From contig DAHWNL010000040.1 of assembly GCA_027339965.1 (NCBI GenBank), positions 1-22,373 of the forward strand: a stretch of DNA of 22,373 nucleotides. Reading direction: 5' to 3'. The stretch comes from Granulicella sp. GTDB lineage: Bacteria; Acidobacteriota; Terriglobia; Terriglobales; Acidobacteriaceae. Below, one piece after another: positions 1,374 to 22,373 of the stretch; the first letter of the stretch is position 1, and each line of letters opens with the position of its first letter. The position numbers and the translations under genes were made by a program. Under the pieces are notes generated by a model that did no database searches, was not told the origin of the DNA, and saw only the letters and a program-made list of their open reading frames with translations.

Positions 1374-4300
1374 ATGCGAAAGCTTCTTGTAGTGGCATTG
1401 TCTGTGGGTCTTTTTGCCGGCACTGGTGCAGCGAGGGCGCAACAGACCCTTGGGTCTTTGAACGGGACGGTGGAGGACGACTCGGGAGCAGCGGTGTCGG
1501 ACTCCATGGTGACGGCGACCGATCACGCCATCGGCGTGACCCGAACCACGAAGAGCCAGGCGAATGGATACTTCCAGATCTTTGACCTGCCGGTGGGCAC
1601 CTACGAGGTGACCACGACGCATGATGGTTTTGACACGACTGACTTGACCGGCGTCGAGGTCCAGGAGGCTACCGCCAAGACCCTGCTGGTGAAGCTGAAG
1701 GTTGGACACGTTGCAACTGCGGTGACGGTGACGGCCAATCCCCTGCTGAATGCGACCGATACCACCAACGGCTACACGCTGGACAAGGCCCAGATCGCCC
1801 TGACGCCTTTGGCCACGGGCAGCTTCACGCAACTGGCAATCCTTTCGCCGGGCGTGAACGCTGAGCTGCTGAGCGGCGAAGGCGTCAACGCTGGTTTGGG
1901 GAATCAGCCCATCTGGGCCAACGGCCAGCGCGACACCTCCAATACCTTTCAGGTGAACGGCGTGGACGCTGACAATCTGTTCAACGGCAAGAGCTCCAGC
2001 AGTGACACCTCGCAGCGCTATAACTTCAACATTGGCCAGGGGAACACCGTCGGCGGAGCCATCATCGAAGGTAGTTCGGTGTATGGTTCCAACGGAAACA
2101 GCCTGCCGGCGCCCCCGCCAGAGTTCATTCAGGAGCTGCGCGTCAATGCCTCCATGTATGACTCGGAGGAGGGCGCCACCAGTGGAGCGCAGATCGACGT
2201 CAACACCCAGACCGGCACCAACCACTATCACGGTCAGGTGTATAGCAACTATTCCAACAGTGCGTTGAACTCGGCGCCATTCTTCTTCAATCAGGATGCC
2301 GTTCTGGCGGAGCAGGGTGTGGGAGCCTTTCCCATGTCGCTGCGTGATCCGCTGCTGCATCGCTGGACCCTTGGCGGCACATTGGGCGGCCCGGTCATCA
2401 AAAACAAGCTCTTCTTCTTTGTGGCTTATCAGCATCTTTATGACTCGGATCAGGCCACGGGCCTGACCCAGATGACCGTGCCGCAGGCGTTCAACACCAC
2501 CAACTGTCCCAACGGCCGCACCAGCGCGTGTCTGCAGGCGCTGAACCAGGGATACTCCGGCGGCACAAGCCCGATTACCCTGGATCCCTCCGGGGTCGCC
2601 GAGGCGTTGTTCAACGCCACCCTGCCCAACGGGCAGTATCTGATTCCCTACGCTCAGACCTCAGCGCCCTTTGCCTACGATGTCCCTAACGTCACACTCC
2701 AAGGTACTTCGTTGTTCAAGGGAGATCAGGCGACGGGCAGCCTGGACTACGACGTTACCCAAACCGACAGGTTGAGCTTCAAGTACTACTATCAGACCGA
2801 CCCGGTTACCATGCCCTACGGCTTTACCTCAGAGGTGGGAGGATTTCCCTCTGTCACCGAGAACCATGCTCAGGTGGCCGCGCTGGACAACACGATCCAA
2901 CTGGGGCCGCGGCTGAACTGGGAGCAGCGCGTTGGCTGGGATCGCATGGGCACCTATACCACCTACAATCAGACGGTGGTCAACAATGCGACGGGCGCCA
3001 ATGCCGGTCCTACCTTCGGCATCACCGATGATGTTCCGGGTCAGCCCGGCCTGCTTCCCAGCTTCAACATATCGAGATTCGCTGTGAACGAGTCGGGCAC
3101 GCCCAGCCTTCGCGTGGGCCCCAACAGCAGCTTTGTGAACACCGGTTACTACCAGAATCGGATCAATCCGTCGAGCAACGCGATTCTGATCCTCGGCAAC
3201 CACACCCTGATGGTTGGCGGAGGCTACAGCTACACGCAACTGAACATCGAAAACAACCGCAACGGCCTGATAACAGAAAATTTTTCCAACCTAAAGAACT
3301 TTTTGGAAGGGAATGTGCACACTTCAAGCGTGCTGGAGACGCTCTCCTCCAACGGAAAGAACCTCGCCAATCGTTACTATCGCACCAATGAGGGCGCCTC
3401 TTACCTCCAGGATAAATGGCAGGCGCTCTCCAATCTGAGCATCACCGCGGGCGTGCGTTGGGACTATCACGGCGGCATGACGGAGAAGTATGGCAACTTC
3501 TTCAACTTCGATCCGAACACCTATGATGTCACCGGCACGGATCCAGCGGTAGGCGGCAGCGGCTTCACGGTAATCAATGACGGCCTGGTGGTGGCCGGTA
3601 ACAATCCAACGGCGCGCACGCCGGGAACCAGCGCCTCCACACTCACGGGACGCCAGTGGGGGATCTCCCCGCGCATCGGCTTCGCCTGGTCGCCCAAGCG
3701 GGATGGAGGCAAGTTCGTGATCAACGGTGGCGCTGGTATTTATTATGACCGCGGTGAACTGTTCGCTTATCTCTCGCCCCCGGCGGGTGGTGGAGTGGGT
3801 GGACCCTTCGGCGTGACGCAGGAGGCTCCGCTGGTGAGCGCGGTGAGTGGCACCGGGACCTCGATTGCGAATCCTCTGGGTTCAGCCGCCCTGCTCACCA
3901 GCAGCACCACGCCTCCCGCGCCCAGCGAGAATCCCGCGGTGGAGACAACGGCGCTGCAGAATCAGCTCAACTACATGACGGGCAGCACCGCTGGGTTCGG
4001 CCTCAACTGCGGCGGCGTAGGCAACTTCGAGAATGAGTGCTCCCAGACGCCTCTGTACATCGGATCCTATGACAAGAACAATGTTCTGCCTTACACAATG
4101 AACTACACGCTGAACATCCAGTGGCAGCCAAGGAATGATCTGGCGGTAACCATCGGCTACTCCGGCAATCTGGGCAGGCATTCAGTGATTCCACTGCCGT
4201 TCAATATGCCGCAGGTGGCTACCCCCGGTAGCCCAGCGATGATTCTCGGCAAGGATCCGCACTCCAGCGGAGAGATTTACAGCTACGGCTATGATGTGAC

Positions 4301-5567
4301 GAACGGAAATACGAGCTGCGGAGCCTACGGTGATCCGTGCCCGATCGCCTCTGAGCCCTGGTCTACCTACGATGGCGGGAACTCAGACTTTCGCGCTCCC
4401 TACGTGGGCTACAGCCCTTACTCCGCGATGTACAAGACGGTGGGCAACTCCTCCTACAATGCGCTGAATACCCATCTGGAAAAGCGCCTCTCGCACTCTT
4501 TCCAGGTCGGCGCCAGCTATACGTGGAGCCACGCGCTGGATGAACAGAGCGACATCGGCCTGTTCTTTACCGGAGACAATCCCAACGATCTGAAGCAGTC
4601 CTATGCTTCATCGGACTTCGACCGCACCCATGACTTCACCGCAAACTTCCAAGTAGTGCTTCCCAACGCCGCGCCGGAGCACTCTCTGATGGCGCTTCTG
4701 ACCAACGACTGGACCCTGACCGGCATGACCGTTCTGCAAAGCGGCGAGCCCTACTCTCTCTACGAGTACAACGGAGCGGTGGCCAGCGCACAGCTCGGCT
4801 ACTTCCCCACCCTCATCAATCCGATCCTCTCGATTGCCGATCCCGGCAACCATCGCTCTGCCTTGACGGGCCGCTCCGGCCGATATCGCGGTGTGGGCGG
4901 GGAGTACATGCCGGCACTGGATCCCACTCAGATTGCGGTGGAGTACCTGGCGCCGGGTCAGGGCGGAGTTCCTCCAGCCTCCGCAGGCGCCCCAACGGAT
5001 CCAGTCGACGTCTACGAGACTGCGTTTGCTCCGGGTGACCAGCGCAACATCTTCCGCCAAGGAGCGCAGCGCAGCCTGGATCTCTCCCTGCGCAAGGAGT
5101 TTCACATCAAAGGACGAGTCGATCTTTTGTACTCCTTCAACGTCTTTAACATCACCAACACCACCAGCATGGACGTTCCGCAGGACTCGGCGACCATCGG
5201 TCAGCACGGTTCCTGCGCCAATAACTACCTCGCCGGTTCTGGCGCGCTCTATGACTGCGTGAACGGTTATGAAAACTACGGCTTGATCGTCACCAGCCAG
5301 GCGGATCAAGGATCGACGGTTACGGGCGCGGGTCCTGCTGGAGGCGGCTCCGCGGGGGACAACCTGTATGAGAAGCCCTACACGGGCGGCACTTCGGGTC
5401 GGGCTACCACAGTCCCCTTGACGCTTCCGTTTGGCGTCTACGGCTGCTCGGTGGCCACAGAGGTGACCCCCAGCGGTTGTGCGAACAACAACGCCCAGTT
5501 AGGCTCGGTCACCGGCACCATCGGCAGCCAGCGCATGATTTCCATGGACCTTCACATCACGTTTTAG
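1374..5567 (+). CDS. TonB-dependent receptor, Oar-like, with N-terminal carboxypeptidase-regulatory-like domain
   Basis: 1397 aa with SD GAGGAG upstream. Signal peptide (ARA|QQ), then GSLNGTVED..GAAV..GYFQIFDLPVGTYEVT..GF domain, plug (NGQR..N.FQVNGVD, EFIQELRV), barrel motifs (GGTLGGPVIKNKLFFF, YLQDKWQ..NLSITAGVRWD, SPRIGFAW, SYTWSHALD, FNVFNITN) and C-terminal Phe. Confidence 0.95.
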   Translation: MRKLLVVALSVGLFAGTGAARAQQTLGSLNGTVEDDSGAAVSDSMVTATDHAIGVTRTTKSQANGYFQIFDLPVGTYEVTTTHDGFDTTDLTGVEVQEATAKTLLVKLKVGHVATAVTVTANPLLNATDTTNGYTLDKAQIALTPLATGSFTQLAILSPGVNAELLSGEGVNAGLGNQPIWANGQRDTSNTFQVNGVDADNLFNGKSSSSDTSQRYNFNIGQGNTVGGAIIEGSSVYGSNGNSLPAPPPEFIQELRVNASMYDSEEGATSGAQIDVNTQTGTNHYHGQVYSNYSNSALNSAPFFFNQDAVLAEQGVGAFPMSLRDPLLHRWTLGGTLGGPVIKNKLFFFVAYQHLYDSDQATGLTQMTVPQAFNTTNCPNGRTSACLQALNQGYSGGTSPITLDPSGVAEALFNATLPNGQYLIPYAQTSAPFAYDVPNVTLQGTSLFKGDQATGSLDYDVTQTDRLSFKYYYQTDPVTMPYGFTSEVGGFPSVTENHAQVAALDNTIQLGPRLNWEQRVGWDRMGTYTTYNQTVVNNATGANAGPTFGITDDVPGQPGLLPSFNISRFAVNESGTPSLRVGPNSSFVNTGYYQNRINPSSNAILILGNHTLMVGGGYSYTQLNIENNRNGLITENFSNLKNFLEGNVHTSSVLETLSSNGKNLANRYYRTNEGASYLQDKWQALSNLSITAGVRWDYHGGMTEKYGNFFNFDPNTYDVTGTDPAVGGSGFTVINDGLVVAGNNPTARTPGTSASTLTGRQWGISPRIGFAWSPKRDGGKFVINGGAGIYYDRGELFAYLSPPAGGGVGGPFGVTQEAPLVSAVSGTGTSIANPLGSAALLTSSTTPPAPSENPAVETTALQNQLNYMTGSTAGFGLNCGGVGNFENECSQTPLYIGSYDKNNVLPYTMNYTLNIQWQPRNDLAVTIGYSGNLGRHSVIPLPFNMPQVATPGSPAMILGKDPHSSGEIYSYGYDVTNGNTSCGAYGDPCPIASEPWSTYDGGNSDFRAPYVGYSPYSAMYKTVGNSSYNALNTHLEKRLSHSFQVGASYTWSHALDEQSDIGLFFTGDNPNDLKQSYASSDFDRTHDFTANFQVVLPNAAPEHSLMALLTNDWTLTGMTVLQSGEPYSLYEYNGAVASAQLGYFPTLINPILSIADPGNHRSALTGRSGRYRGVGGEYMPALDPTQIAVEYLAPGQGGVPPASAGAPTDPVDVYETAFAPGDQRNIFRQGAQRSLDLSLRKEFHIKGRVDLLYSFNVFNITNTTSMDVPQDSATIGQHGSCANNYLAGSGALYDCVNGYENYGLIVTSQADQGSTVTGAGPAGGGSAGDNLYEKPYTGGTSGRATTVPLTLPFGVYGCSVATEVTPSGCANNNAQLGSVTGTIGSQRMISMDLHITF

Positions 5568-6955: not shown

Positions 6956-7351
6956 GCCTGGAGTTCAGTGTAGTTCTGTTCGCTGCTGACGGCGAGAGGC
7001 TGGATTGGCTGCATGGGGTTCTGGGGATCTCTAGTTTGAAGGATGGAGCCCGGGGCGCACAGCCACCGATCCCGTTGAACCATGGCTGCCGCTTTGTCCC
7101 GCGGCGACTGGTGAGCTGCCTCGCCGCAGATTCCAGCTAACTTCTTGTTCATGTCGCCCGCGAAGATGTCCCCTTTGGATGAGAGATGCGGCATTCCGTT
7201 GGAGGGAAGATTACTCTAGAGACGGGGCCGGTGCGGTTGGTTCTCCGCCTGAAGCGGCATCTTCAGGGAGAGAGCCAATGGCTGGGGGCGTTTTGGAGCT
7301 TTCGGTCGCCAGGCTAAGATCCTGGCGGGATTCCAATTCGTGGAGGTATCC

Positions 7352-9049
7352 GTGGACGGCAAGCAGCACCAAGCAAAGGTCATCCTGGCGTTGCTTCTGT
7401 TTGCTGGTGCGGCGCCGTGTCATCCTCTGCTGGCCCAGAGCGGCGCTGATCCGTTGAATGCCTTGCGTCATGGAACCCTGGTGGTTTGGTATGTCGGGAA
7501 CTCGGTTCACTCCCAGGAGATGGCGATTCAAGCCGTGTCGGCGTTGAACGACTTCACGCCGTTGAACTACACCGAACACAGCGTGGCCAACTTTGGCCAG
7601 AACGCCTCCAGCTTCGGCCAGAATGCAGCCAGCTTCGGGGTGGACGCAGACAGCAAAAGCATCAGTGTGCCGTCCATTCCGGCCAACCGGGATGCCACTA
7701 CGGCCACGCCGAACGGCATCGGGTACAAGCAGCAGGACAGCAGCACCTTTGGGCAAAACGAGGCCGGCTTTGGCAGCACAGCCGGCAACTACGGTATGGA
7801 GAGCAGCAGCTATGGCCAGAACAGCGCCGGCTTTGGGCAGACCTCGGCGAGCTATGGCACAGAAGCAAGCAACGTGGGCCAGAACGCCTCCAGCTTCGCC
7901 GAACCGGAGAATCAGACAACGGCGCTCAGCAGCGTCAGCCAGTCCCTCCAGATGTCGAGCAGTCCGGAGGAAGAGAGGATACAGCAGAGATTGCGCCAGG
8001 CATATCCGGATCTGCAGGTAAGCTTCTATGCCGTTTCACCCAGCGACTTGCAGTCGATGCTGACCGGCTCCAGGGGGTCCAAGGAGTATCCGGATGTGCT
8101 GGTGGGAACATTGCCCGCGGCATGGTGGGCGGGGATGGACAGCAACTTTGGACTGGTGTCGCTGCAACCCGCGGTGTTTTATCCCAACGGAGTGTTGAAC
8201 CATCCGGAGAGCGCGGCGGAGGTGGCCATTCTGGCCGATGCAGCGAACATGCAGGCGGCGCGGGCCTTCGCCTTGTGGATGAGCGAACCTTTTTCCGATT
8301 GTCCGGGTTGCGTAGCCAAGAGTCTCTCCGGCCCGGCCGCGGGGGCGGCGGAGGTGGCCCGCAAAGCGATCCAACGGCTGGTGAACGGGGTTCCGCTGGG
8401 TAGTCTTGCGGATCCTCGCATGGCCCGCAACAGCTCCCAGGGGCAGCGGCATTTGCTGGCCACGATCGGCGACGCTGCGAGCGTGAACGGGGGGATGCTG
8501 GTGCAGGTGGAGCAGGCCTCCGTGCATGGCAGCCTGGCGGCCATTGCGTTGCGTGTGCTGATCTCCACGCCTGGAATCTTTGGAGTCGTGCATCCTCTGG
8601 TGGTCTTGCGCCAGAGCCGGCGAACGACCAAGCCCGGGCCATGGAAGGTTCTGCAACTGACGTTGGACCTTCCCCAGTATGAACAGACCCAGGAGCGCCG
8701 GGTGCTCATGGTAAGCGATCCTCCCACCTGGGCCGAACAGCGCGGGGGAGTGAAGGGGGTTTCCCTGCTGCAGCCCACGGATGGGCAAGATGTGGTCCAG
8801 ATGCCGCAGCTGCTGTGGCAGAACCATGGCGGCGCAGGGCTGGAGGTGGTGGAGTGGCAGAAGGGTGAAGGCCAGGGCTGGTCGGAGTCGCGCCTCTACT
8901 TTGTCGAAGATCAGAATCCAACCCTGCGCATGCAGGCGATGGCCAAGTTCGCCGTCCAGAACGGGCGCTACCGCTGGCGTTTGTGGAGCGTGGGTGCGCA
9001 TGGGGAGATGAAGATCAGCTCCTGGAGCTCTTTTTTCCTGGAGCAATAG
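7352..9049 (+). CDS. Secreted hypothetical multidomain protein with heptad Gly/Ser/Gln/Asn-rich repeats
   Basis: Long ORF (track 7340..9049). SD GGAGGT at 7342-7347 favours GTG at 7352. Signal peptide MDGKQHQAKVILALLLFAGAAPCHPLLA|Q. Protein-like composition, co-oriented with the downstream ABC ATPase. Confidence 0.85.
   Translation: MDGKQHQAKVILALLLFAGAAPCHPLLAQSGADPLNALRHGTLVVWYVGNSVHSQEMAIQAVSALNDFTPLNYTEHSVANFGQNASSFGQNAASFGVDADSKSISVPSIPANRDATTATPNGIGYKQQDSSTFGQNEAGFGSTAGNYGMESSSYGQNSAGFGQTSASYGTEASNVGQNASSFAEPENQTTALSSVSQSLQMSSSPEEERIQQRLRQAYPDLQVSFYAVSPSDLQSMLTGSRGSKEYPDVLVGTLPAAWWAGMDSNFGLVSLQPAVFYPNGVLNHPESAAEVAILADAANMQAARAFALWMSEPFSDCPGCVAKSLSGPAAGAAEVARKAIQRLVNGVPLGSLADPRMARNSSQGQRHLLATIGDAASVNGGMLVQVEQASVHGSLAAIALRVLISTPGIFGVVHPLVVLRQSRRTTKPGPWKVLQLTLDLPQYEQTQERRVLMVSDPPTWAEQRGGVKGVSLLQPTDGQDVVQMPQLLWQNHGGAGLEVVEWQKGEGQGWSESRLYFVEDQNPTLRMQAMAKFAVQNGRYRWRLWSVGAHGEMKISSWSSFFLEQ
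7592..7900 (+). repeat. Coding 21-bp-period (heptapeptide) imperfect tandem repeats in two blocks
   Basis: Block 1: FGQNASS FGQNAAS FGVDADS. Block 2: FGQNEAG FGSTAGN YGMESSS YGQNSAG FGQTSAS YGTEASN VGQNASS FA. Exact 22-nt repeat GGCCAGAACGCCTCCAGCTTCG at 7595-7616 and 7877-7898. Confidence 0.9.
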
Positions 9050-12902: not shown

Positions 12903-14264
12903 TTAGCGTCTGAAGTAGCGGGGATCCTGGCCTGGCGCCCACGGATTGTAGGCTTGCGCGAAGGCCGCGCGATACCCGATCGAGGGGTGGGAGTAGGTCC
13001 AAAACACGTAGAACGGGTTCGGGTTGGGATCAGCCAGAGAGGTTTGGCCCAGCACGTCGAAGGCGTCTCTGGCGGTTGCCTGGGGATCAGCGACCAACCC
13101 ATGGATGGCCTCTTCCCCGTAGATGTCGGCGGCATGTTCATGCCCGCGGCTGTAAGAGTTTTCCATGGGCTCCAGCAAGGCCCCAAAGAAGGAAATGGCC
13201 AGCAGCAGAACGGCCAACGCCGCCCAGTCGTTCTGTGAAGGCACGCCCCATCTGGAACCAAACTTCTTGATGGACCACTGTACAAAGAGATAGCCAAGAT
13301 AAAAGGCTGCCAGAAGCAGGACAAGGATGAAGACGATGGTGTTGCGAATGTGATGCAAAACATAGTGCCCGGACTCATGGCCAAAGACGAAGACGATCTC
13401 ATCCGGAGTCATGCGCGCGATCGTGGTATCCCACACCACCACGCGCTTGCTGGCTCCAAAGCCCTCCACGTCAGCGTTCAGGGTCGAGAGCTTGGCGCTG
13501 GCCTTCATCAGGAACATCCGCTGCGGCGGGATGTTCATATGGCCCTTCTGCACCACCTGCTCCAGGCGGAGGACCAGGGCGGGGTTGGTCTTCTCCAGCG
13601 GCTGGTACTGGAAGAACATGGGCTCCATATAGGGCGCGACAAAGATCCCGAAGAACAAAATGGGGATCGAGACGCACCAGAAGACCAGCCACCACATCCG
13701 CTCCATCTTGCGGATGATCCAAAACAGGAGCATGAGCAGCAAACCGCCAATCCCCCACGCCAGCGCAAAGACTTTGATCTGATCGCGGAACCAACTGGGC
13801 CAGCCTTGTACGGACAGGCCGTAGTGCAGCGAGAGGTGGTGAGCGTAGAGATCCAGCGGGAGATCGAGCAGCGTGGTCGCAAGAAGAAACAGGAAGAGAA
13901 AGACATAGCCCTGCGCCCAGCGATTGGGGCTGATCTTGAGGGATCTGTCACGCATCCAGGCGATGCCGCCGAAGCTGAGGAGAAGAACAAGACACAGGAT
14001 ATCCCAGGCCTCGCCGCCAAAGTGCAACAACTGGCCGACGCTGCTGAGATGCTGTGCCTTGACCAACTCCGCCGGAGCCAGAGAGTACTGCGCCGTGTTG
14101 CCGTGGGGCGGAGCGGCGGCCAACTCCTGTCGGGCAGCTAGGTCGGCGGCATGCTCGGCTCTGGTCTGGCCGGCGCAACCGGTCAGGCACAGGACGAGGA
14201 CGCCGAGCAGAAACAAGAGCGAGCAAAGACGGGTAGAGGACGAATTCCAGGACATCCAGCGCAT
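12903..14264 (-). CDS. M48 family zinc metallopeptidase, Ste24-like, multi-pass membrane
   Basis: HESGH (HExxH), downstream EHAAD, NADVEGFGASKRVVVWDT, YSHPSIGYR and several hydrophobic helices. SD AGGAGA, 10 nt after the rlpA stop. Lipobox-like LTGC at the N-terminus. Confidence 0.93.
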   Translation of the reverse strand: MRWMSWNSSSTRLCSLLFLLGVLVLCLTGCAGQTRAEHAADLAARQELAAAPPHGNTAQYSLAPAELVKAQHLSSVGQLLHFGGEAWDILCLVLLLSFGGIAWMRDRSLKISPNRWAQGYVFLFLFLLATTLLDLPLDLYAHHLSLHYGLSVQGWPSWFRDQIKVFALAWGIGGLLLMLLFWIIRKMERMWWLVFWCVSIPILFFGIFVAPYMEPMFFQYQPLEKTNPALVLRLEQVVQKGHMNIPPQRMFLMKASAKLSTLNADVEGFGASKRVVVWDTTIARMTPDEIVFVFGHESGHYVLHHIRNTIVFILVLLLAAFYLGYLFVQWSIKKFGSRWGVPSQNDWAALAVLLLAISFFGALLEPMENSYSRGHEHAADIYGEEAIHGLVADPQATARDAFDVLGQTSLADPNPNPFYVFWTYSHPSIGYRAAFAQAYNPWAPGQDPRYFRR

Positions 14265-14274
14265 CTCAGATCTC

Positions 14275-15006
14275 CTAATTCAATCGAACCAGATAGGGAA
14301 CGACATGCGGGAACGGCCGGCCGATCCACTCCATGATCGCCACGGCCTCGGCGCGATCGGGACGGGCCGGGCGAATGCGTACCCAGTAGCCGGTGGCTCC
14401 GGCGAACTCTATAACCTGGGATCCGGCGTAGCGGCGCAGCAGCGCCCTCTTCAGGTCCAGGGCATCCTTCCTTGTGGGGAAGACGCCGGTTTGCACGCAC
14501 CAGCTGGACTGGGTCGCAGGCGAGGTACGCAAGTATGCTTCCACCCGAACCCTGGCCACGCCCATACGATAGAGATCGATCTTCTTGGCTGCGCTTTCGG
14601 AGAGGTCGATGATACGCCCGTGCACGAAGGGCCCGCGGTCGGTGATGCGCACCAGCACGGACTTGTTGTTGGAAAGATTGGTCACCCGAACGATGGTCTC
14701 CAGCGGAAGTGTCTTGTGAGCCGCGGTCATACCGGCGCCATCGTAGTAGGAGCCGTCGGCGGCGCGATGTCCGCTGGGAGCGTACCAACTGGCCATGCCG
14801 GTTTCCACAAAATCCGGCCGTCCCTTGGGTAGGGGAATCGGAGCCCGTTCTGAGCGTGCGGCGTTGCTCTGCTGGCCGCCCAGCGTCGGTGGCGGCGGCA
14901 CAGAGGGCTGTGGGCTGCGGTGATGGCAGCCACCGGAGAGCAGCGTCAGCACGCTGGCAGCGATCCAGCCGGCCAGGACCGGCTTTGGCCGCTCCCCGCG
15001 CCTCAT
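14275..15006 (-). CDS. rlpA: Septal ring lytic transglycosylase RlpA family lipoprotein (DPBB + SPOR-like domain)
   Basis: ETGMASWY, MTAAHKTLP, VRVTNL.N.KSV.VRITDRGPF..GRIIDLS..AA. C-terminal VQTGVF..YWVRI SPOR-like domain. Lipoprotein-type signal ending LSGGC if the start is ATG 15006. Alternative ATGs at 15051, 15084 and 15219. Confidence 0.92.
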   Translation of the reverse strand: MRRGERPKPVLAGWIAASVLTLLSGGCHHRSPQPSVPPPPTLGGQQSNAARSERAPIPLPKGRPDFVETGMASWYAPSGHRAADGSYYDGAGMTAAHKTLPLETIVRVTNLSNNKSVLVRITDRGPFVHGRIIDLSESAAKKIDLYRMGVARVRVEAYLRTSPATQSSWCVQTGVFPTRKDALDLKRALLRRYAGSQVIEFAGATGYWVRIRPARPDRAEAVAIMEWIGRPFPHVVPYLVRLN

Positions 15007-15363
15007 GGGCCGGCGGTGACCGGAGACGGTTGCCCTCTGGCCATCCGGCATCCCCGCCGTCAATGGGCTACCCTTGTTCAACATCCAGCCTTCATGATTC
15101 TTGGCCACGGTTCCCGCCGTCAACGCCGTAGCCGGTAGCGTGTGCCTAGCTGGATTCCTTTGTATCTTTATCCTTGCGTACCACACCCGAATTCGGGCTG
15201 CGTCTTTCGCATTTTCCATGTGTCCTCAGGGTCCGATCGCAAGGGAGGGAAGGCGCCGTGCCGAACTCGATGGCGAACGCTCTTGCCTGCGGCTGTGCAG
15301 ATGATCGGTACAGCCGGCACCGCTGCCTCAGAACTCTCCCTGTTGCAGGGCTTTCCAGAGGGC

Positions 15364-15502: not shown

Positions 15503-18500
15503 TTAGAAGGATTCGCTGATGGTGAAGCGGAAGGTTTTGCGTGGCTCACGCAGAACGTAATCCGCTCCGTAGTATTGCAGCGCCTGCTGGTAGGTATAGG
15601 CTGCCGCGCCCGGCTCTGTGGCGAATGGGAAGAAGTCCTTGAAGCACTCCTGAGATGTGCCGGAGCACGCCGAACCGCTGGGAGCCACGATCTGCTGCGG
15701 TATCGCCCTGTAAAGCCGCAGCGGGTTATAGGCGTAGTAGATCTGGAACGGCGCATTGATAATCGGCATCAGCACTTGCATATAAAGCCCCGTAGACATG
15801 CGCGGAACGATGTTGGTATGAGGCACGTCCTTCAGGAACTCAGAGTAGGGCGGTAGTTGATAGCCCTGCAGACACTCTCCGTTGACCACCTCCGGGCAGC
15901 CATAGGTGGGGCTGTTGATGGTTGAGAGGCCTTCGGGGCTCATCATCAACTGGTGCGGCTCCAGGTTCATCGTCAGGCCAAAGTCATCGAAGATCGCGAA
16001 GGTGATCTGATTAATGATCGGGAAACGGTACTCCAGGTTCGTGATGGCAGAGGTATCGCCGCCAATCGGCGCCAGACGATAGATGGGCAACGGGATCTGC
16101 ACATCGCCCAGAGCCTGGTCGGTCGGATCGCGAGGGACGCCGGTTCCATCCGGATTCGTCAGGTTGAATAAAACCTTGGTGGGCATGAAGGTATAGGGAG
16201 AGAGGGAACGGATGTCGAAGCCGCGCAGATCATTCTCGCCGCCGTTGTAGATGCGGGAGAAGGGAGGCGCCACCTGGCCGCCAAAGCCGGAGATGTTGGC
16301 TAGCTGAATCCGATAGGCCAAAACATTGTGACCTTCTTTATTGATTCTGATTCCCTTCATGGGGAAGAACTGCCGCCAGGCAACCACAGGCGAGTAGTAC
16401 TTCGTGTTGCCGCCCATACCCGCGAATTGGATAGCAACACTCAGATCCTTGCCGTTATGTGGCCCAATGGGCCGATCCAGGGTGCTGAAGCTGAAGCTGG
16501 GCGTCAGCACGGAGGTGACGATGCCGTTCAACTGGTTCGGACCCTCGATGCCGGAGCGAAAGGCCAGAGTCTGGAAGACGCTGAGCGTGTTCTGGTTGAA
16601 GGTTGTAATGCCGGAGCTCGACCAGGAGTAGGCCACTCCGATTCGGGCTACGCCGGTGCGGCGGAAGAGCGTGCGCAGTGCTTCCGTGGTTTGGATGGTC
16701 AGGCCCTTGGCCGACTGATTGAAGTTGTTCAGCAGCGACTGCTGGGCTGTGGCCAGGTTTTGATTGGAACCGGTCACGGAATAGCTTTTGGAGGGGTTGA
16801 AGTCGGTTTTGCGGTCGAAGACCTGAACGCCAAGCGAGATCGGCTTGTTGTGCAGGTAGGGCTCGGTGAAGCCGAAGCTCAGATTGCGCTCCAGGTCGCC
16901 GATGTTGGCGGTGACGTTCAGCGTCTCTCCAAAGCCGAGAAAGTTGTTGGTTGCATAGTTCACTCCCAGGAAGGAGCCGGAGAGCCCGCTGACGCCACCA
17001 TTGATGCCGATGGAGTTCTTGCCTTTTTCGTGGAGCTTGATGAGCAAGTCCACCGTGCCCGCATCGGTGTTCTGCTGCGTCTCCACGTCCTGGTCGGTCT
17101 TCAGTGTGTCGAAGTAGTCCAGTTGGTTGAGACGCATCAGGGAGAGGTCGACCAGGCGGCTGTTGTACACCTGACCCTCTTGAATCAGCATTTCGCGCCG
17201 GATGACGCGGTCGCGCGTCAGTGTGTTGCCGGTAAACTCGATGCGTGAGACATAGAACTGCTTGCCTTCATCGATGTCGACGTTCAGATAGATCAGATGC
17301 TTGGCCTCGTCGATTCGTGGAATCGGGGTCGGCACCATGTTGATATAACCGCCCTCGCCGTAGGCCTTCTTGAGATTATCGATGCCCTTGGCAAAGAGTC
17401 TTGCATTGAACCAGGTGCCGTCAGCCTCTGGGAAGAGCGCGCGCAGGGCCTTGGCGTTACGGTAAGACTTGTTCCCGGAAAAGGTGATTCCACCCAGACG
17501 GTAGCGCTGGCCCTCTTCGATCGGGATGACGATATCCACGCGCTTGCCCTTGGAGGGGCGCAGGGTGAACGGATTGATGCCGCCGGCGTTGCGGACATGG
17601 GTCCGGGGCTCGCCGGTGATGGCCTTGAAGTAACCCTTGTCGCGGTAGGCTTCGCGCACGCGGTCCGCGTCTTCATCCAGCTTGCTGGCATCATAGGTAC
17701 GCGGGAACAGGTCTTCAAAGATGATCGAGTGCGGAATCCCGATCGGCCTCAGGTTCGCCATGGCTTCCACCAGTTGGCGATGGGAGAGCGCATGGTTGCC
17801 GGTGAAGGCGATCTTGCCCACCTTCACGGTGGGGCCTTCCTTCACGACAAAGGTGAGCGCGACACGCGCCGGAGGAATCGTCTTGACTTCGGTTTTAATG
17901 GTGGCGAACTGATGTCCGTGCTCTCCCAGCATCTCCTGGAGCACCACTTCAGCGTGCTTCACCCGGGTGCGGTCAAACTGACTTTCCACGTTCAGGCCGA
18001 CGTGTTCCTTCTTCAGGCGGTCCATCACGTCGGAGGCCGTGATGGAGCTCAGGCCCTTGTAGTTGATCTCGCTGATAGTGGGTTTTTCGCGCACGTACAC
18101 CAGCAACTGCAGACATCCCTTGCCTTCGACCTTCTCAATCCGCACGGTGTCGAAGTAGCCGGTATTCCATAGTGAATTGAAGTCGCGCTCCACCACGGAA
18201 GGATCATAAACATCGCCGGCGTGGCTGAAGAGCCGCGCGACGATGGATTCCTTGGGAATGCGGCGGTTACCGATCACTTCCACCGGGCAGAGGATCTGTG
18301 GCGCTGAGGCGGCAGAGAACGGAGGGGAGACCTGGACTTGCGCCCTGGCCAGCGCGGAGCCGGCCGGCGCCAGAAGGATGGCCAAAGTAGCCAGACCCGC
18401 GGCGACACCCAGACGCGAGAAGCTCCGGCGATGGGCAGAGATGACGACACGATTCAGGCCGGAGTGGCTTTGGCCAAAGCCAAGGATGCCCAATCGGCTC

Positions 18501-18574
18501 GAGCGCGTGCGCACAGGCTGGGACAAAGACTTCACGGAGCTTGCGCTCACTCGGATTCCGGTAAAAATGACCAC
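15503..18574 (-). CDS. bamA: Outer membrane protein assembly factor BamA
   Basis: Five POTRA domains (ending VREK, VKEG, IEEG, IDEG, LHEK; GN..TRDRVIRRE in POTRA5). Barrel motifs NNFLGFGETL, FTEPYL, LRGF (VRGF/Y) and GGD....NLEYRFP. C-terminal Phe. GTG start with GAGGGT upstream; exact start uncertain. Confidence 0.96.
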   Translation of the reverse strand: MVIFTGIRVSASSVKSLSQPVRTRSSRLGILGFGQSHSGLNRVVISAHRRSFSRLGVAAGLATLAILLAPAGSALARAQVQVSPPFSAASAPQILCPVEVIGNRRIPKESIVARLFSHAGDVYDPSVVERDFNSLWNTGYFDTVRIEKVEGKGCLQLLVYVREKPTISEINYKGLSSITASDVMDRLKKEHVGLNVESQFDRTRVKHAEVVLQEMLGEHGHQFATIKTEVKTIPPARVALTFVVKEGPTVKVGKIAFTGNHALSHRQLVEAMANLRPIGIPHSIIFEDLFPRTYDASKLDEDADRVREAYRDKGYFKAITGEPRTHVRNAGGINPFTLRPSKGKRVDIVIPIEEGQRYRLGGITFSGNKSYRNAKALRALFPEADGTWFNARLFAKGIDNLKKAYGEGGYINMVPTPIPRIDEAKHLIYLNVDIDEGKQFYVSRIEFTGNTLTRDRVIRREMLIQEGQVYNSRLVDLSLMRLNQLDYFDTLKTDQDVETQQNTDAGTVDLLIKLHEKGKNSIGINGGVSGLSGSFLGVNYATNNFLGFGETLNVTANIGDLERNLSFGFTEPYLHNKPISLGVQVFDRKTDFNPSKSYSVTGSNQNLATAQQSLLNNFNQSAKGLTIQTTEALRTLFRRTGVARIGVAYSWSSSGITTFNQNTLSVFQTLAFRSGIEGPNQLNGIVTSVLTPSFSFSTLDRPIGPHNGKDLSVAIQFAGMGGNTKYYSPVVAWRQFFPMKGIRINKEGHNVLAYRIQLANISGFGGQVAPPFSRIYNGGENDLRGFDIRSLSPYTFMPTKVLFNLTNPDGTGVPRDPTDQALGDVQIPLPIYRLAPIGGDTSAITNLEYRFPIINQITFAIFDDFGLTMNLEPHQLMMSPEGLSTINSPTYGCPEVVNGECLQGYQLPPYSEFLKDVPHTNIVPRMSTGLYMQVLMPIINAPFQIYYAYNPLRLYRAIPQQIVAPSGSACSGTSQECFKDFFPFATEPGAAAYTYQQALQYYGADYVLREPRKTFRFTISESF

Positions 18575-18658
18575 ACCCTCACTGCTCTTTGAATCTGTCC
18601 ACGCTTGTTGGACACGTCAGTTGATACCAGCACTGCGAAACACCAAGGTAGAGCTTTG

Positions 18659-18664
18659 ATTATA
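18659..18664 (-). promoter_or_regulatory. Candidate sigma70 -10 box for bamA
   Basis: Perfect TATAAT on the minus strand 84 nt upstream of the bamA start in GC-rich DNA. No good -35. Confidence 0.45.
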
Positions 18665-18867
18665 GGCGACCGGAAGCGGCCCATGCGAACCCAAACGTCG
18701 CTCTGAACCAATTAATCGCAGAACTTTAGGGGGCTGAACGCCGAGCCGGACCCCTTCCAGGCCAGCCACGCGTCTTTTCTCTGCCCGGTCCTGAAAAGCC
18801 GTGTGGCCGGCTCCCGTCTCCGCGCTCTGTTTCTGGGGCGTGCCCCGGCCCTACAACGCAGCCCCCA

Positions 18868-18913
18868 ACGGGCAGGCCCGATGCCGTGTGCGGGCTAGAT
18901 TCTGCCTGCCCGT
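18868..18913 (-). terminator. Stem-loop downstream of xrtJ
   Basis: Perfect 10-bp ACGGGCAGGC/GCCTGCCCGT inverted repeat 15 nt past the xrtJ stop. No U-tract. Confidence 0.5.
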
Positions 18914-18928
18914 GCGGCCCGACGGTCG

Positions 18929-20575
18929 CTACTGCCGGCTGTACGGCTCGGTGACCGCGAGCAGGTTTGCCCCCTCCAGAAAGGAGGCCAATGCGGAGGC
19001 CAGGCGCGGCTCCATCAGGCTGACCGGGGTGATCGTATCCAGGCTCTCCACCTTGAGCATCACGGGAATGGGGCGCAACCGGCCGCTCTCCAGCGGCAGC
19101 CCTCGGTGCGGCTCGGCGTAGATCAGGGTAAGGTTCCGGCTGGTCCCCGAGTACTGCCGGCAGGCTCCATGGTCACAGACGGTGGAGGCCTCCAGCTCCT
19201 GGGTGGCGCCGTTGTTGTACGTAGCGACCGTCAGATCGACCTCTCCGCCCGCAGTCTGGACCACCATCTGGCCGCGCCAGGTGGGGTCATCTCCCCGCGC
19301 CAGATGACAGACCTCGGCGTCATGCACGCTCTGCGGCGACACACCCAGCATCACGTGCATTTCCGTGGCGCCACTCCCGGCGGGCTTCGCGTAATCGCCC
19401 CAGGTGTACACCAGCACGCCGAACTGGGTCTCTTTCCAGGTGCGCTGCAGGGTGAAAGCGCCCACCTGTGCGGGCAGCATGGGCTCCGGCTGGGCTGCCT
19501 CCCAGGCCGCCTCCAGATGGTGCTGGCGCATGGCGTCCAGCCCGAACATGACGGCCATCGCCAGCACAACGGCTACCTGCGCCCGTACCATCGCCAGCCC
19601 CTGGGGTTGGTGTGCCCCTTCCGGCCCGCTGGCTGTGCGGGCGGCGCCGTTCAGGGGGTCCGGATCTCCGCGCAGCTTGTTGGCTAGGGTAAAGAAGATC
19701 GCCAGGGCGCAAACGAACAGGCAGCCGCCGATGACGTAGTCTGCTGTTTTGGCGTGGTGCTGCATCCACGGGTAGGGAAGAGCCAGCTTATAGTACAACA
19801 CCAGAAGGCAAAGCCTAAGGAAGTTGAACAGGTATCCCAACAGCACCGCCCCGGCTACCACCGGGGCGCAGACATACCAACGAAAGCGGTAGAGATAGCT
19901 GACCACAACCGCTGCCAGGCCGAGAGTGACGGCGCCGCGGATGCCATTGCAGCCGGGTGCAATGAACATGCCGAAATCCGGGGTGAACATCAAGCGCAGC
20001 TTGTCCTGGGTAAGTTGCTCTCCCAGAGTATGGGCCCAGGCCCGGGCCACCATGGCCGAGGCATGTTGCAGGGGCAGGTCCACCCAGGTGCTGAAGCTCT
20101 GCGGTACGGGGATCACCGTCCCCATCAGTAGCACCGGAAACCAGGCGGCCTTGAGCAGCCGCTGGCCGCCAAAGAGTAGCACCATCGCCGCAGCGTAGAG
20201 CACAGCCACCAGAGGGAGCGGTGGAAGCTCCAGCAGCCAGTGCCGGCGGATGGTCACGATCAGCATCATCTGGCTGCGCAGAAAGACGATGGATGCGGTG
20301 GCCGCCAGCAGGACAACGCCCCACCAGGAGCCATCGGTCTCCCAGTCCAGGGCCCGCCAGGCACGCAGAATCAGCAGATAGCAGACCAGAGGCACGGCCA
20401 TGCCCATCGATTTGAGGTCATCGGTGGTCCAAACGCCGATCAGCGACTGCACGGTGGGCCAGATGGTCAAAAGCCCTGCAGCCGCGCAGATCGTGGCCAT
20501 GGTGGCCGTTCTGGAGGAGTGTCGGGAGGCCATTTCCATAGGGCTCATGGTCGCAGACCAGGCCGGCGAAGGCAA
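18929..20575 (-). CDS. xrtJ: Exosortase J (exosortase/EpsH domain fused to an EpsI-like extracytoplasmic domain)
   Basis: Multi-TM protein. IAPGCNGIR (catalytic Cys, 19949-19951), FNFLRL (Arg, 19814-19816), IPVP...DLPLQ. C-terminal domain with HDAEVC (EpsI H.PEVC-like). Adjacent PExPT-type target. Start could be ATG 20548. Confidence 0.88.
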   Translation of the reverse strand: MPSPAWSATMSPMEMASRHSSRTATMATICAAAGLLTIWPTVQSLIGVWTTDDLKSMGMAVPLVCYLLILRAWRALDWETDGSWWGVVLLAATASIVFLRSQMMLIVTIRRHWLLELPPLPLVAVLYAAAMVLLFGGQRLLKAAWFPVLLMGTVIPVPQSFSTWVDLPLQHASAMVARAWAHTLGEQLTQDKLRLMFTPDFGMFIAPGCNGIRGAVTLGLAAVVVSYLYRFRWYVCAPVVAGAVLLGYLFNFLRLCLLVLYYKLALPYPWMQHHAKTADYVIGGCLFVCALAIFFTLANKLRGDPDPLNGAARTASGPEGAHQPQGLAMVRAQVAVVLAMAVMFGLDAMRQHHLEAAWEAAQPEPMLPAQVGAFTLQRTWKETQFGVLVYTWGDYAKPAGSGATEMHVMLGVSPQSVHDAEVCHLARGDDPTWRGQMVVQTAGGEVDLTVATYNNGATQELEASTVCDHGACRQYSGTSRNLTLIYAEPHRGLPLESGRLRPIPVMLKVESLDTITPVSLMEPRLASALASFLEGANLLAVTEPYSRQ

Positions 20576-20675
20576 TCCGGATGTGGTTTCAGAGTTCGCT
20601 CGTCCTGTAGGGAAGGCGGCCTGGATCGGGCTTGATTACGACCGCCTGGCAAGGCTCGCCTGCACCGCATGCCGG

Positions 20676-20876
20676 CTACTTCCAGGGATCATGGCTCTTC
20701 GTTCGCCGTGCCCGCAGCCGAGTTCGCAGAGAGGAGATGAAGTAGGCCCCACCCGCCAGACCGGCAAGAACCAGAGTGGGGTTTTCGGGCGAGTCTTCAC
20801 AACCTCCCTGAGCGAAAGCAGGGAGGGCAACCAGCAGAGCGAGTGCGAGAGTGGTGAGCAGAAGGGTCTTCTTCAT
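20676..20876 (-). CDS. PExPT-CTERM / XrtJ-associated TM-motif-TM small protein (66 aa)
   Basis: MKKTLLLTTLALALLVALPAFA|QGGCEDS-PENPT-LVLAGLAGGAYFISSL-RTRLRARR: signal peptide, short motif, TM helix and basic tail (tripartite sorting signal), directly upstream of the exosortase. Internal ATG of track ORF 20676..21020. Confidence 0.88.
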   Translation of the reverse strand: MKKTLLLTTLALALLVALPAFAQGGCEDSPENPTLVLAGLAGGAYFISSLRTRLRARRTKSHDPWK

Positions 20877-21004
20877 AAAGGGAGATCCGGTTTCCGCCGC
20901 GACCGCTGGGGCCCATGGCTGTACTGCGATGAGATGAACTGCGCCGATCCGAAGGACGAATCGCACTTCTATACATCTGGGCGCTACGAGGTCTATCTGC
21001 GTTG

Positions 21005-21033
21005 AGGATATCGTCGGCAAAGGCGAAAGTCAA
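21005..21033 (-). promoter_or_regulatory. Sigma70-type promoter for the PExPT-CTERM/xrtJ unit
   Basis: TTGACT (21033-21028), 17-nt spacer, TATCCT (21010-21005) on the minus strand. Confidence 0.65.
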
Positions 21034-21323
21034 CGATTCGAGGTGTCAAAGTAGTGCCCCCGATACGTTCGCAGAGATGTCATGGCGAAGGATGGGTCCA
21101 CCGTTTCCGCGCCAGGCATATAAGACTCTCGCGCTGTAAAATCAGGGCTACGGGCAAGGCATAGGTGAGGTTGCGGGCCGAGGAGATTGCCGCATCCCCC
21201 GTCAGCCTCTGGTTTCGCTGGGCGAGCGTGCGCGGTTGGCGGCTTTTCCATCGAAATCCCCCAAATCTACGGGAACAAGGCTCTGCCGGCGCAACCGGTG
21301 GATTTCAGGAGGTGATCACGACC

Positions 21324-21908
21324 ATGGCATCAACGATGACAGGGATGGAGGGGCTTTCCGGCGTCTATGAAGGCATCAAGGCGCGCATGAACAAGTCCGT
21401 GGAGGACTTCCGCGCCCACCTGGTGAGTGTCCGTACCGGCCGCGCCTCGGTCCATATGCTGGACGGCATCAAGGTTGACTACTATGGTACCGAGACGCCA
21501 CTCTCTCAGGTAGCACAGATCACAACCCCGGAAGCCAGCCTGATTCTGGTGCAGCCCTGGGAGCCGCATCTAGTTCCACTGATTGATAAGGCCATCCGCA
21601 ACAGTCAGCATGGGTTCAACCCCATGCATGATGGCAAGATCGTCCGCGTGCCCATTCCGCCCATGACCGAGGAGCGCCGCAAGGAGACGGTGAAGCACTT
21701 GGCCGGCATGGCGGAGGACCACAAGACGACCATCCGCAATATCCGCCGCGAGGGCAATGAGGCTGTCAAGAAGGCTGCGAAAGACAAGCTGATTTCGGCC
21801 GATGACGAGAAGCGCGCCAACGCTGAGATCCAGGAACTCACCGACGCCGAGATCAGGCGTCTCGACGAGTTGTTCCGCGCCAAAGAAAAAGAGATCCTGA
21901 CTATCTGA
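21324..21908 (+). CDS. frr: Ribosome recycling factor
   Basis: RTGRAS, VDYYG..TPL.QVA, NP..DG..VRVPIPPMTEERRKE.VK, IRNIRR, ISADDEKR, KEKEILTI. SD AGGAGGT before ATG 21324. Confidence 0.98.
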   Translation: MASTMTGMEGLSGVYEGIKARMNKSVEDFRAHLVSVRTGRASVHMLDGIKVDYYGTETPLSQVAQITTPEASLILVQPWEPHLVPLIDKAIRNSQHGFNPMHDGKIVRVPIPPMTEERRKETVKHLAGMAEDHKTTIRNIRREGNEAVKKAAKDKLISADDEKRANAEIQELTDAEIRRLDELFRAKEKEILTI

Positions 21909-21946: not shown

Positions 21947-22373
21947 GGCGACTCTGATCAAGTATCGGCTGGGTTGATATTTCTTAATCTGAGTCGAATT
22001 TTGGGTCGAGTTGCTAGGGTATTGGGCGTTGGCGCTCTGAACAAGTGTAGTTTTCCGTACTTCGGGCAGACTACTGCCCGGGCACGGCCATCAGTTTTTG
22101 CGCTGTGATGAGGTGGATGAGGGCGAAGCTGGTGTAGAGCCTGTGCAGGTTCTTGGCCAGGCCCCGGTAGCGCACCTTGACGAAGCCGAAGCGTTGCTGG
22201 AGCGGAGCGAAGAGGTGTTCAACGCGGGAGCGAAGCTTGCTCTTGATGCGGTTGGCTTCGCGCACCTCGGGCCAGATGTGGAGCTTGCTGCGCCAGCGTC
22301 GGCAGGTCAGGTCTTCGGCCTTGGGCGCGTGCTGGGCCAGCACGGCGGCCTGGCCCTGATAAGCCTGGTCGCC
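21947..22373 (-). mobile_element. IS5-family insertion sequence, right part
   Basis: Transposase C-terminus plus an IS5-type terminal IR-like sequence GGCGACTCTGATCAAGT at 21947-21963, with a second copy at 22031-22046. Exact end uncertain. Confidence 0.7.
22071..22373 (-). CDS. IS5-family transposase, C-terminal part (runs off the window)
   Basis: GDQAYQG (second catalytic Asp region), NRIKSKLRSRVEHLF (catalytic Glu), FGFVKVRYRGLAKN. Confidence 0.93.
   Translation of the reverse strand, partial: GDQAYQGQAAVLAQHAPKAEDLTCRRWRSKLHIWPEVREANRIKSKLRSRVEHLFAPLQQRFGFVKVRYRGLAKNLHRLYTSFALIHLITAQKLMAVPGQ

Follow-up and report, generated by a model that had tools for sequence, protein, structure and literature searches.

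The window analysed here, a stretch of 22,373 nucleotides from a Granulicella sp. of the Acidobacteriaceae (contig DAHWNL010000040.1), carries on its reverse strand a gene for a 66-amino-acid (aa) precursor followed by xrtJ, the gene of an exosortase. By profile matching the pair is XrtJ/PExPT-CTERM, a family that is already catalogued and whose function is unexplained. Gene anatomy, family membership, the conservation pattern of the precursors and a three-way linkage between precursor, xrtJ and a family of NHL-propeller lipoproteins are clear from the genomes compared. We tentatively favour, at somewhat less than even confidence, a reading in which XrtJ would cleave the precursor and attach it to a lipid; the resulting micro-lipopeptide would bear a thiol and serve the NHL lipoproteins. 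The features of the pair are as follows.

20676..20876, minus strand: micro-precursor gene, PExPT-CTERM, 66 aa (TIGR04200; homologues bear PF27850)
20811..20876, minus strand: predicted signal peptide, residues 1-22, ending P-A-F-A (from the P-x-x-A pattern; putative cleavage)
20790..20810, minus strand: cargo Q-G-G-C-E-D-S, residues 23-29 (from the translation; family consensus G-C-x-[DN]-S)
20801..20799, minus strand: codon of Cys26 in the precursor cargo (from the translation)
20775..20789, minus strand: PENPT sorting motif, residues 30-34 (conservation of P, E, P and T)
20679..20774, minus strand: hydrophobic helix (residues 35-50; 16 residues) and Arg-rich basic tail (51-66), from the sequence
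18929..20575, minus strand: xrtJ, exosortase J, up to 548 aa (TIGR04199, PF09721; model pLDDT 83)
19949..19951, minus strand: Cys209, presumed nucleophile, in the C-x-G motif (76/76 XrtJ; motif per PMC1569441, available in part)
19814..19816, minus strand: Arg254 of the N-x-x-R motif (76/76 XrtJ)
19739..19741, minus strand: Asp279 in D-x-x-x-G, the counterpart of H-x-x-x-G in canonical exosortases (76/76; alignment with 10 canonical enzymes)
18932..19486, minus strand: C-terminal soluble EpsI-like domain of XrtJ, predicted periplasmic, with a Mog1/PsbP/DcrB-like fold (conservation, fold comparison and a weak EpsI alignment)

The precursor scores 88.5 bits against TIGR04200 (targ_of_XrtJ; cut-off 40) and XrtJ 632.6 bits against TIGR04199 (cut-off 200), so that both lie far above their cut-offs, and they are adjacent in the usual order with an intergenic gap of 100 bases. 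XrtJ also matches the family signature TIGR04178 and, at 124.9 bits, PF09721, the only Pfam family to match it. A preliminary description of this DNA, made from its letters alone, had recognised a precursor of 66 aa with a Q-G-G-C-E-D-S cargo, a PENPT motif, a transmembrane helix and a basic tail, followed by an exosortase J of 548 aa, and the profile matches bear this out. The xrtJ open reading frame (ORF) opens with TTG, and a later ATG could be the real start (522-539 aa).

The cargo is defined by its Cys. Among 379 distinct precursor cores pooled from all sources, a collection that is Cys-biased because its database sets were fetched with Cys-bearing queries, this residue lies four positions before PExPT in 367, at -5 in three and at -7 in two, and is absent from seven. 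A cargo-blind profile built from motif, helix and tail found 89 precursors at 88 of 99 exosortase loci, 86 of them with Cys at -4. Invariance of the Cys and of its spacing had been proposed earlier as a test of the system, and both are conserved on this scale. The P-x-x-A signal-peptidase pattern, from which the AFA-Q site is predicted, is found in 313 of the 379 precursors and yields a seven-residue cargo in 244 of these, although it over-calls some cargos of 13-20 residues. Three residues separate the predicted site from the Cys in 240 precursors, and up to 17 in others. Because the -4 spacing is nearly constant while the distance to the signal peptide varies, the Cys appears to be registered to the sorting motif and not to the signal peptide.

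The family consensus reads G-C-x-[DN]-S-P-E-[ND]-P-T, with P, E, P and T of the motif kept in 97-100% of cores and free variation only at the residue after the Cys and in the N-terminal tail. Large hydrophobic residues (FLIMWY) occupy positions -3, -2, -1, 0 and +1 in 26, 2, 0, 0 and 0 of the 379 cores, respectively. The first cargo residue is Gln in 243 of 313 precursors and the genome encodes a glutaminyl cyclase, so the N-terminal pyroglutamate suggested earlier is possible; it is not required. One cargo, [LM]GGCTNS, is common to 17 loci whose XrtJ proteins share 60-91% identity. The precursor helix follows the XrtJ branch, and a genome holds up to five precursors. A lipobox reading of the cargo (Lgt/signal peptidase II) was considered and excluded because the distance of the Cys from the signal peptide varies, reaching 17 residues past the P-x-x-A site; most precursors also have Q at -3, and D, E or N is tolerated at -2. 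Only the LGGC subgroup resembles a lipobox.

Tandem precursor genes with differing cargos were seen at L173:4683-5318 and L102:4448-4978, and a degenerate precursor at L075. In genomes G171, G222, G188 and G126, frameshifts or stops interrupt or split the xrtJ gene, perhaps through decay or assembly error.

No folded passenger accompanies this tail. When the tail profile was searched against the 70,941 ORFs of the genome, which is 98.9% complete, the precursor was the single match (E 1e-16; next 0.42), and no large PExPT-tailed protein was found. A search among longer database proteins, which is weak evidence, gave two matches, both of them small precursors with over-called starts; the one long sequence among the 150 best representatives (407 aa) arises where the frame reads on past the tail into a sugar transferase. 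The databases hold hundreds of tiny conserved homologues. With its near-invariant Cys and no large PExPT protein, the earlier view that the product is the peptide itself or its conjugate is well supported.

A second line of evidence comes from the neighbourhood. Clustering of the neighbours at 81 xrtJ loci identified, besides housekeeping genes, a family of lipoproteins of 630-1000 aa. These combine a lipobox with an NHL beta-propeller and an N-terminal domain that has no name. A gene of this family is present at 28 of 80 xrtJ loci, within 1 kb in 25 of the 80 and often separated by a 4-base gap. Co-occurrence was counted in one sample of 301 genomes of the bacterial family (the unpublished G268 and G173 are in the denominators), of which 15 have XrtJ above cut-off and 46 the lipoprotein domain. 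The NHL family is found in 14 of the 15 XrtJ genomes, the single miss being a genome that is 70% complete, versus 32 of the 286 others. In 11 of the 15 an NHL gene lies within about 1.3 kb of xrtJ, in four orientations. Because the lipoproteins accompany XrtJ in 14 of 15 genomes, the XrtJ-precursor unit is not self-contained as a family, and the NHL lipoprotein is its third component. The earlier account of a self-contained two-gene unit thus stands for this locus, where the pair sits between frr and bamA, and fails for the family, of which it missed one component.

All pairwise linkages are seen: precursor with xrtJ, xrtJ with an NHL gene and no precursor (L111, L114, L166 and L167), and precursor with an NHL gene and no xrtJ (e.g. 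L176-L180). Eleven genomes together hold 21 precursors that are not directly beside xrtJ; an NHL gene adjoins 11 of these, three precede polysaccharide genes and seven have neither neighbour. The three polysaccharide-adjacent orphans (L174:3611-3874, L175:4065-4331 and L181:3903-4199) all have PECPT, with a second Cys, and lie directly 5' of polysaccharide export genes or of genes presumed from their sequence to be rmlA-like. In some genomes, such as G490, several different cargos occur, each beside a different NHL paralogue. In a tree from a quick search, with L033 excluded, one branch of 61 rows (support 99) has an NHL gene at the locus in 40. Genomes with loci of the window type still keep the NHL family, with two tandem copies here (contig C73, 29289-35139) and 4-11 copies in five of five others. 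Compared with other XrtJ loci, the present copy shows no difference of kind: it falls in the frr-bamA branch, has a promoter-like site of its own and lacks an NHL gene next to it.

Several observations on these lipoproteins and loci stand by themselves. One NHL subfamily has an internal C-[VI]-[ND]-[ST] (e.g. ACVNS) like the cargo consensus in 11 of 48 complete members (examples are L161:4109-6055, L179:1742-3751 and, in this genome, C73:29289-31988). Ten of these 11 have a longer C-terminal tail, the subfamily co-transcribed with xrtJ lacks the motif, and the resemblance may be due to chance. At L078 and L101, xrtJ has no adjacent precursor and lies beside glycosyltransferase- or epimerase-like genes, with two to three precursors elsewhere that are mostly NHL-adjacent. 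In the ESM Atlas, only unnamed clusters were obtained for the NHL N-terminal domain and for the C-terminal domain of XrtJ.

The enzyme was compared across 76 full-length XrtJ proteins. C209, G211, N251 and R254 are invariant (76/76), corresponding to the C-x-G and N-x-x-R motifs of exosortases (PMC1569441, available in part). At the third motif all 76 have D279-x-x-x-G283, with His in place of the Asp in 10 of 10 aligned canonical enzymes. In these alignments the Asp is a trait of the XrtJ subfamily, and it bars a label of EpsH/XrtA type, not membership of XrtJ. The C-terminal domain has its own invariant set (H418, D419, C423, H424, R427, E462, C467 and C472), in which the number of Cys is odd (three). 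It matches neither TIGR02914 nor any Pfam family; its modelled fold resembles Mog1/PsbP/DcrB (Z 7-8.4, root-mean-square deviation 3.4-5), a middling but consistent similarity, and its HDxxxC aligns weakly, at probability 0.2, on the HSPxxC of EpsI. The domain is probably a diverged EpsI. Canonical EpsI domains were seen to have one lone Cys from HSPxxC onward in 10 of 10 cases (e.g. L005:2310-2966 and L026-L036), and this unpaired periplasmic Cys-His of EpsI could be a second acyl-transfer site. The membrane domain had no solved relative by sequence, and fold searching returned helical-bundle matches only. Co-folding of XrtJ with the mature precursor scored 0.17 against a mark of 0.32, which weighs neither way.

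XrtJ thus shares C-x-G, N-x-x-R, an EpsI-like domain and some links to polysaccharide genes with the PEP-CTERM/EpsH-EpsI systems of XrtA and XrtD type. It differs from the EpsH type by D-x-x-x-G, by its tiny substrates, of which a genome has one to five where the other systems have many large ones, and by the NHL linkage. XrtE/VPEID-CTERM (TIGR04162/TIGR04161) is another case of an exosortase dedicated to a short neighbouring substrate with almost no passenger. However, the VPEID-CTERM motif is different, its cargo has no Cys, and XrtE is fused to a CAAX-protease domain. One such locus, L148, was caught by the precursor profile, and its XrtE/VPEID-CTERM-like substrate is nearly passenger-free.

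A sister clade of exosortases (L024, L025, L027, L033 and L117-L123) falls below the XrtJ cut-off and has fused or separate EpsI; these enzymes match TIGR02914, also below its cut-off. Their loci contain adjacent micro-substrates with PE[ND]P[TS] whose cargos (HGRHS, HGKKS, RRRRS, DERCRRS, QACNKPHPS or GLIPSFDTKLPLG) are basic and mostly without Cys. All four sister enzymes that were aligned have Asp at the third motif position. Since sister cargos can lack Cys, the micro-substrate design and the Asp are therefore independent of a Cys at -4, and the enzyme type to which XrtJ belongs does not appear to need a cargo Cys. The NHL lipoprotein family is absent from four sister-clade genomes, which is consistent but would be expected anyway from its base rate of 11%.

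In the mechanism we favour, Sec would export the 66-aa precursor and signal peptidase I would remove its signal peptide, so that QGGCEDS-PENPT faces the periplasm, with the C-terminal helix as its anchor. XrtJ would then cut in or next to S-P-E-N-P with Cys209 to form an acyl-enzyme, as expected for its family, and pass the few N-terminal residues to an acceptor in the envelope. The likeliest acceptor is the phosphatidylethanolamine amine, in line with the proposal for ArtA. This would yield a micro-lipopeptide of the form (pyro)Q-G-G-C-E-D-S-(P...)-lipid, in which the Cys would not be needed for turnover but would be the working group of the product, as a free thiol, a disulfide or an acyl or lipid carrier, at a fixed distance from the membrane. 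The micro-lipopeptide may act with NHL-propeller lipoproteins as a ligand, cofactor or assembly partner, and some precursor paralogues may serve polysaccharide loci.

ArtA/PGF-CTERM of Haloferax volcanii offers a homologous enzyme (TIGR04178), a tripartite C-terminal signal and a candidate acceptor pathway of phosphatidylethanolamine type. In the available part of 10.1101/863746, ArtA cleavage depends on lipid synthesis and is coupled to attachment of an ethanolamine lipid in what that source calls a speculative model. Phosphatidylethanolamine is favoured because it is the sole experiment-derived acceptor proposal for the family in the sources as available, because a gene of its pathway, for phosphatidylserine decarboxylase, is present in the genome, and because sister cargos without Cys point to turnover that needs no internal thiol. 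ArtA anchors large proteins, whereas the XrtJ passenger, of about seven residues, has a fixed Cys; XrtJ also carries an EpsI-like domain as a fusion and, at its third motif, an Asp. A micro-lipopeptide is also favoured by the single tiny substrate in a genome with no large PExPT protein, by the sharing of cargos across species and, by analogy, by rhombosortase (10.1101/2023.06.07.544157, available in part).

Several points weigh against it. Kinship between the genomes means that they are not independent samples, the members from which the NHL profile was made were linked to XrtJ, and 32 genomes without XrtJ also have the NHL family. Ten of the 21 orphan precursors have no NHL neighbour, and in the window-type branch none of the 43 rows has an NHL gene at the locus. 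The literature searched gave no cut site or acceptor for a bacterial exosortase, and the cut site of ArtA is left unresolved in PMC6098224, as far as that text was available. The Asp in place of the triad His in all 76 XrtJ proteins may mean a chemistry other than amine transfer. Finally, ring closure is a more direct explanation of the fixed Cys spacing.

An unlikely alternative to the micro-lipopeptide is that XrtJ is an exosortase turned peptide maturase, in which the Asp and a second Cys/His site would yield a Cys-closed thiolactone, or a thioester-activated peptide, to be bound or accepted by NHL lipoproteins. The ring-forming version, taken singly, is rather unlikely. Here the cargo Cys would attack the XrtJ thioester and close a ring of four (C-x-D/N-S) or five (C-x-D/N-S-P) residues with a variable N-terminal tail, and the NHL lipoprotein would be its binding protein. 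The preliminary description had proposed such a signal by analogy with AgrB/AgrD, with which the pair shares a membrane Cys peptidase, a presumed acyl-enzyme, a Cys that may lie 4-5 residues before the cut, an acidic residue next and a variable N-terminal tail. A Cys fixed to the motif resembles the ring and variable exocyclic tail of an autoinducing peptide (AIP), and the five-residue ring is AIP-sized if the cut follows the first Pro (PMC10482373, available in part). The Asp-for-His replacement and the several cargos of G490, each with its own NHL paralogue, fit as well. However, the residues of the ring would be polar, and according to the same source an AIP is active only with hydrophobic residues in its ring. 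XrtJ lacks AgrB homology (PF04647 matches nothing in XrtJ or the genome), its topology is opposite, with a periplasmic motif and a C-terminal helix, and no AgrC/AgrA is linked to it. Prolyl thioesters are sluggish, which also counts against the ring. There is little diversification, one cargo being shared by 17 loci with XrtJ identities down to 60%. No kinase, regulator or exporter occurs among 74 recurrent-neighbour representatives; these are 74 of the 89 representatives of clusters in at least 3 of 80 loci, the 15 omitted being xrtJ, bamA, frr, NHL and shadow frames, and ORFs under 200 aa lie outside the scan. The sister clade shares the Asp and has Cys-less cargos. On all these counts the thiolactone signal is the less well supported part of the earlier proposal. 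No paper joining exosortases with thiolactone peptides was found in the literature searched.

Ligation of the peptide by XrtJ to the NHL lipoprotein, to another envelope protein or to a polysaccharide or lipopolysaccharide intermediate, possibly by a thioester relay through Cys423, stands on a par with the ring. The invariant H418, D419, C423, H424, R427 and E462 resemble a second site, and the odd number of invariant Cys in the XrtJ domain, like the lone Cys of canonical EpsI, would suit a relay. The three PECPT-type orphans directly upstream of polysaccharide export or rmlA-like genes and the close translational coupling of xrtJ to NHL genes also suit a ligase. Against this, the Lys near the C-terminus of the NHL protein, a candidate acceptor, gives way to Arg, Gln or Val in several members, among them the copy in this genome, and the Cys count beyond the lipobox is even in most NHL proteins. 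A pilin-type Lys acceptor is accordingly not supported. Delivery of the sorting tail in trans, through a disulfide to the NHL protein, was rejected as a main model given the protein's own lipobox and mostly even Cys counts.

It is distinctly unlikely that the small protein escapes cleavage and remains membrane-bound, serving XrtJ as an accessory subunit, a pseudo-substrate or a thiol/acyl shuttle. An analogy is offered by the DltX- or PatC-type small proteins that partner membrane acyltransferases. The database name 'TM-motif-TM protein', the missing triad His and a helix sequence that tracks the XrtJ branch are compatible with such a role. However, the tripartite tail is that of cleaved sorting signals (10.1101/2023.06.07.544157, in the part available), the signal-peptidase pattern is conserved, and additional precursor copies are found with NHL genes at sites away from xrtJ.

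Hydrolysis alone is improbable. In this case XrtJ would release a linear thiol peptide, either free, joined through a disulfide or, following the proposal for MYXO-CTERM, S-lipidated before release. One-step transpeptidation is unproven in the family according to the available part of 10.1101/2023.06.07.544157, and Cys lipidation followed by cleavage has been proposed for myxosortase substrates (PMC11980579, available in part), which similarly have an invariant Cys, often G-C, just ahead of a helix and basic tail. However, the myxosortase enzyme is of the CPBP (Rce1-like) family and its substrates are large, whereas XrtJ matches PF09721 only and the precursor Cys lies upstream of a separate PExPT motif. 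ArtA cleavage needs lipid synthesis (10.1101/863746, available in part), and a polar peptide of seven residues would probably be short-lived in the periplasm.

That XrtJ is an ordinary sorting enzyme for large PExPT-tailed proteins, with the 66-aa gene a degenerate remnant, is very nearly untenable and, on the searches made, largely refuted: the genome does carry five ordinary PEP-CTERM proteins above cut-off, but these have a separate exosortase and EpsI of their own on contig C2, and the lone tail match in the genome and the hundreds of conserved tiny homologues argue otherwise.

The surroundings of the pair include the following features.

21005..21033, minus strand: sigma70-like site TTGACT-17-TATCCT, about 130-160 bases 5' of the precursor (motif score 9/12; conservation)
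21165..21908, plus strand: frr, divergent neighbour (TIGR00496), adjoining xrtJ in about 37 of 81 loci
15503..18574, minus strand: bamA, downstream neighbour (TIGR03303), at about 33 of 81 xrtJ loci

The sigma70 promoter that had been assigned to the pair is at chance level when taken alone (one site found versus 0.6 +/- 0.8 in shuffles). It gains support from comparison, as a like motif lies 5' of 37 of 42 window-type precursors, whereas it is missing from all 49 others and occurs in 0.34% of random 255-mers. A sigma54-type site was found 5' of only one of 123 precursors. No terminator-like site was found within 18500-21400, and the gap between precursor and xrtJ has no unusual structure (z -0.65). 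Three RNA runs of the same study gave just short unrelated pieces, which have no bearing on expression.

Elsewhere in the window are a TonB-dependent-type outer membrane barrel (1374-5567, plus strand), a 569-aa ORF without Pfam or NCBIfam match 5' of an oligopeptide-type ABC ATPase (7340-9049, plus strand), an M48 peptidase (12903-14264, minus strand) and rlpA (14275-15219, minus strand), which comes after bamA in many window-type loci. A partial ISAzo13 transposase lies at one contig end (571-1116, minus strand), and at the other is what we take to be an IS5-like transposase fragment (22071-22373, minus strand).

No paper naming the XrtJ/PExPT-CTERM family was found in the literature searched; the 2012 catalogue of exosortase subfamilies, or its supplements, may describe XrtJ. 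The papers found on Acidobacteria exosortases and on NHL lipoproteins were off topic by title or abstract. With a natural substrate whose entire product would be about seven residues, the question of the cut site and acceptor of a bacterial exosortase becomes directly answerable by mass spectrometry once the two genes are co-expressed. Whether micro-lipopeptide, ring or protein tag, the product would be a small ribosomal product not described in the literature searched. If XrtJ is a thiolactone or thioester maturase, it would represent a new class akin to ribosomally synthesised and post-translationally modified peptides and give a Gram-negative lineage from soil a cyclic-peptide signal or a covalent tag, and paralogous pairs of cargo and lipoprotein would provide its specificity. 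The XrtJ-precursor system also hints at what a large, uncharacterised family of Acidobacteriaceae lipoproteins may do.

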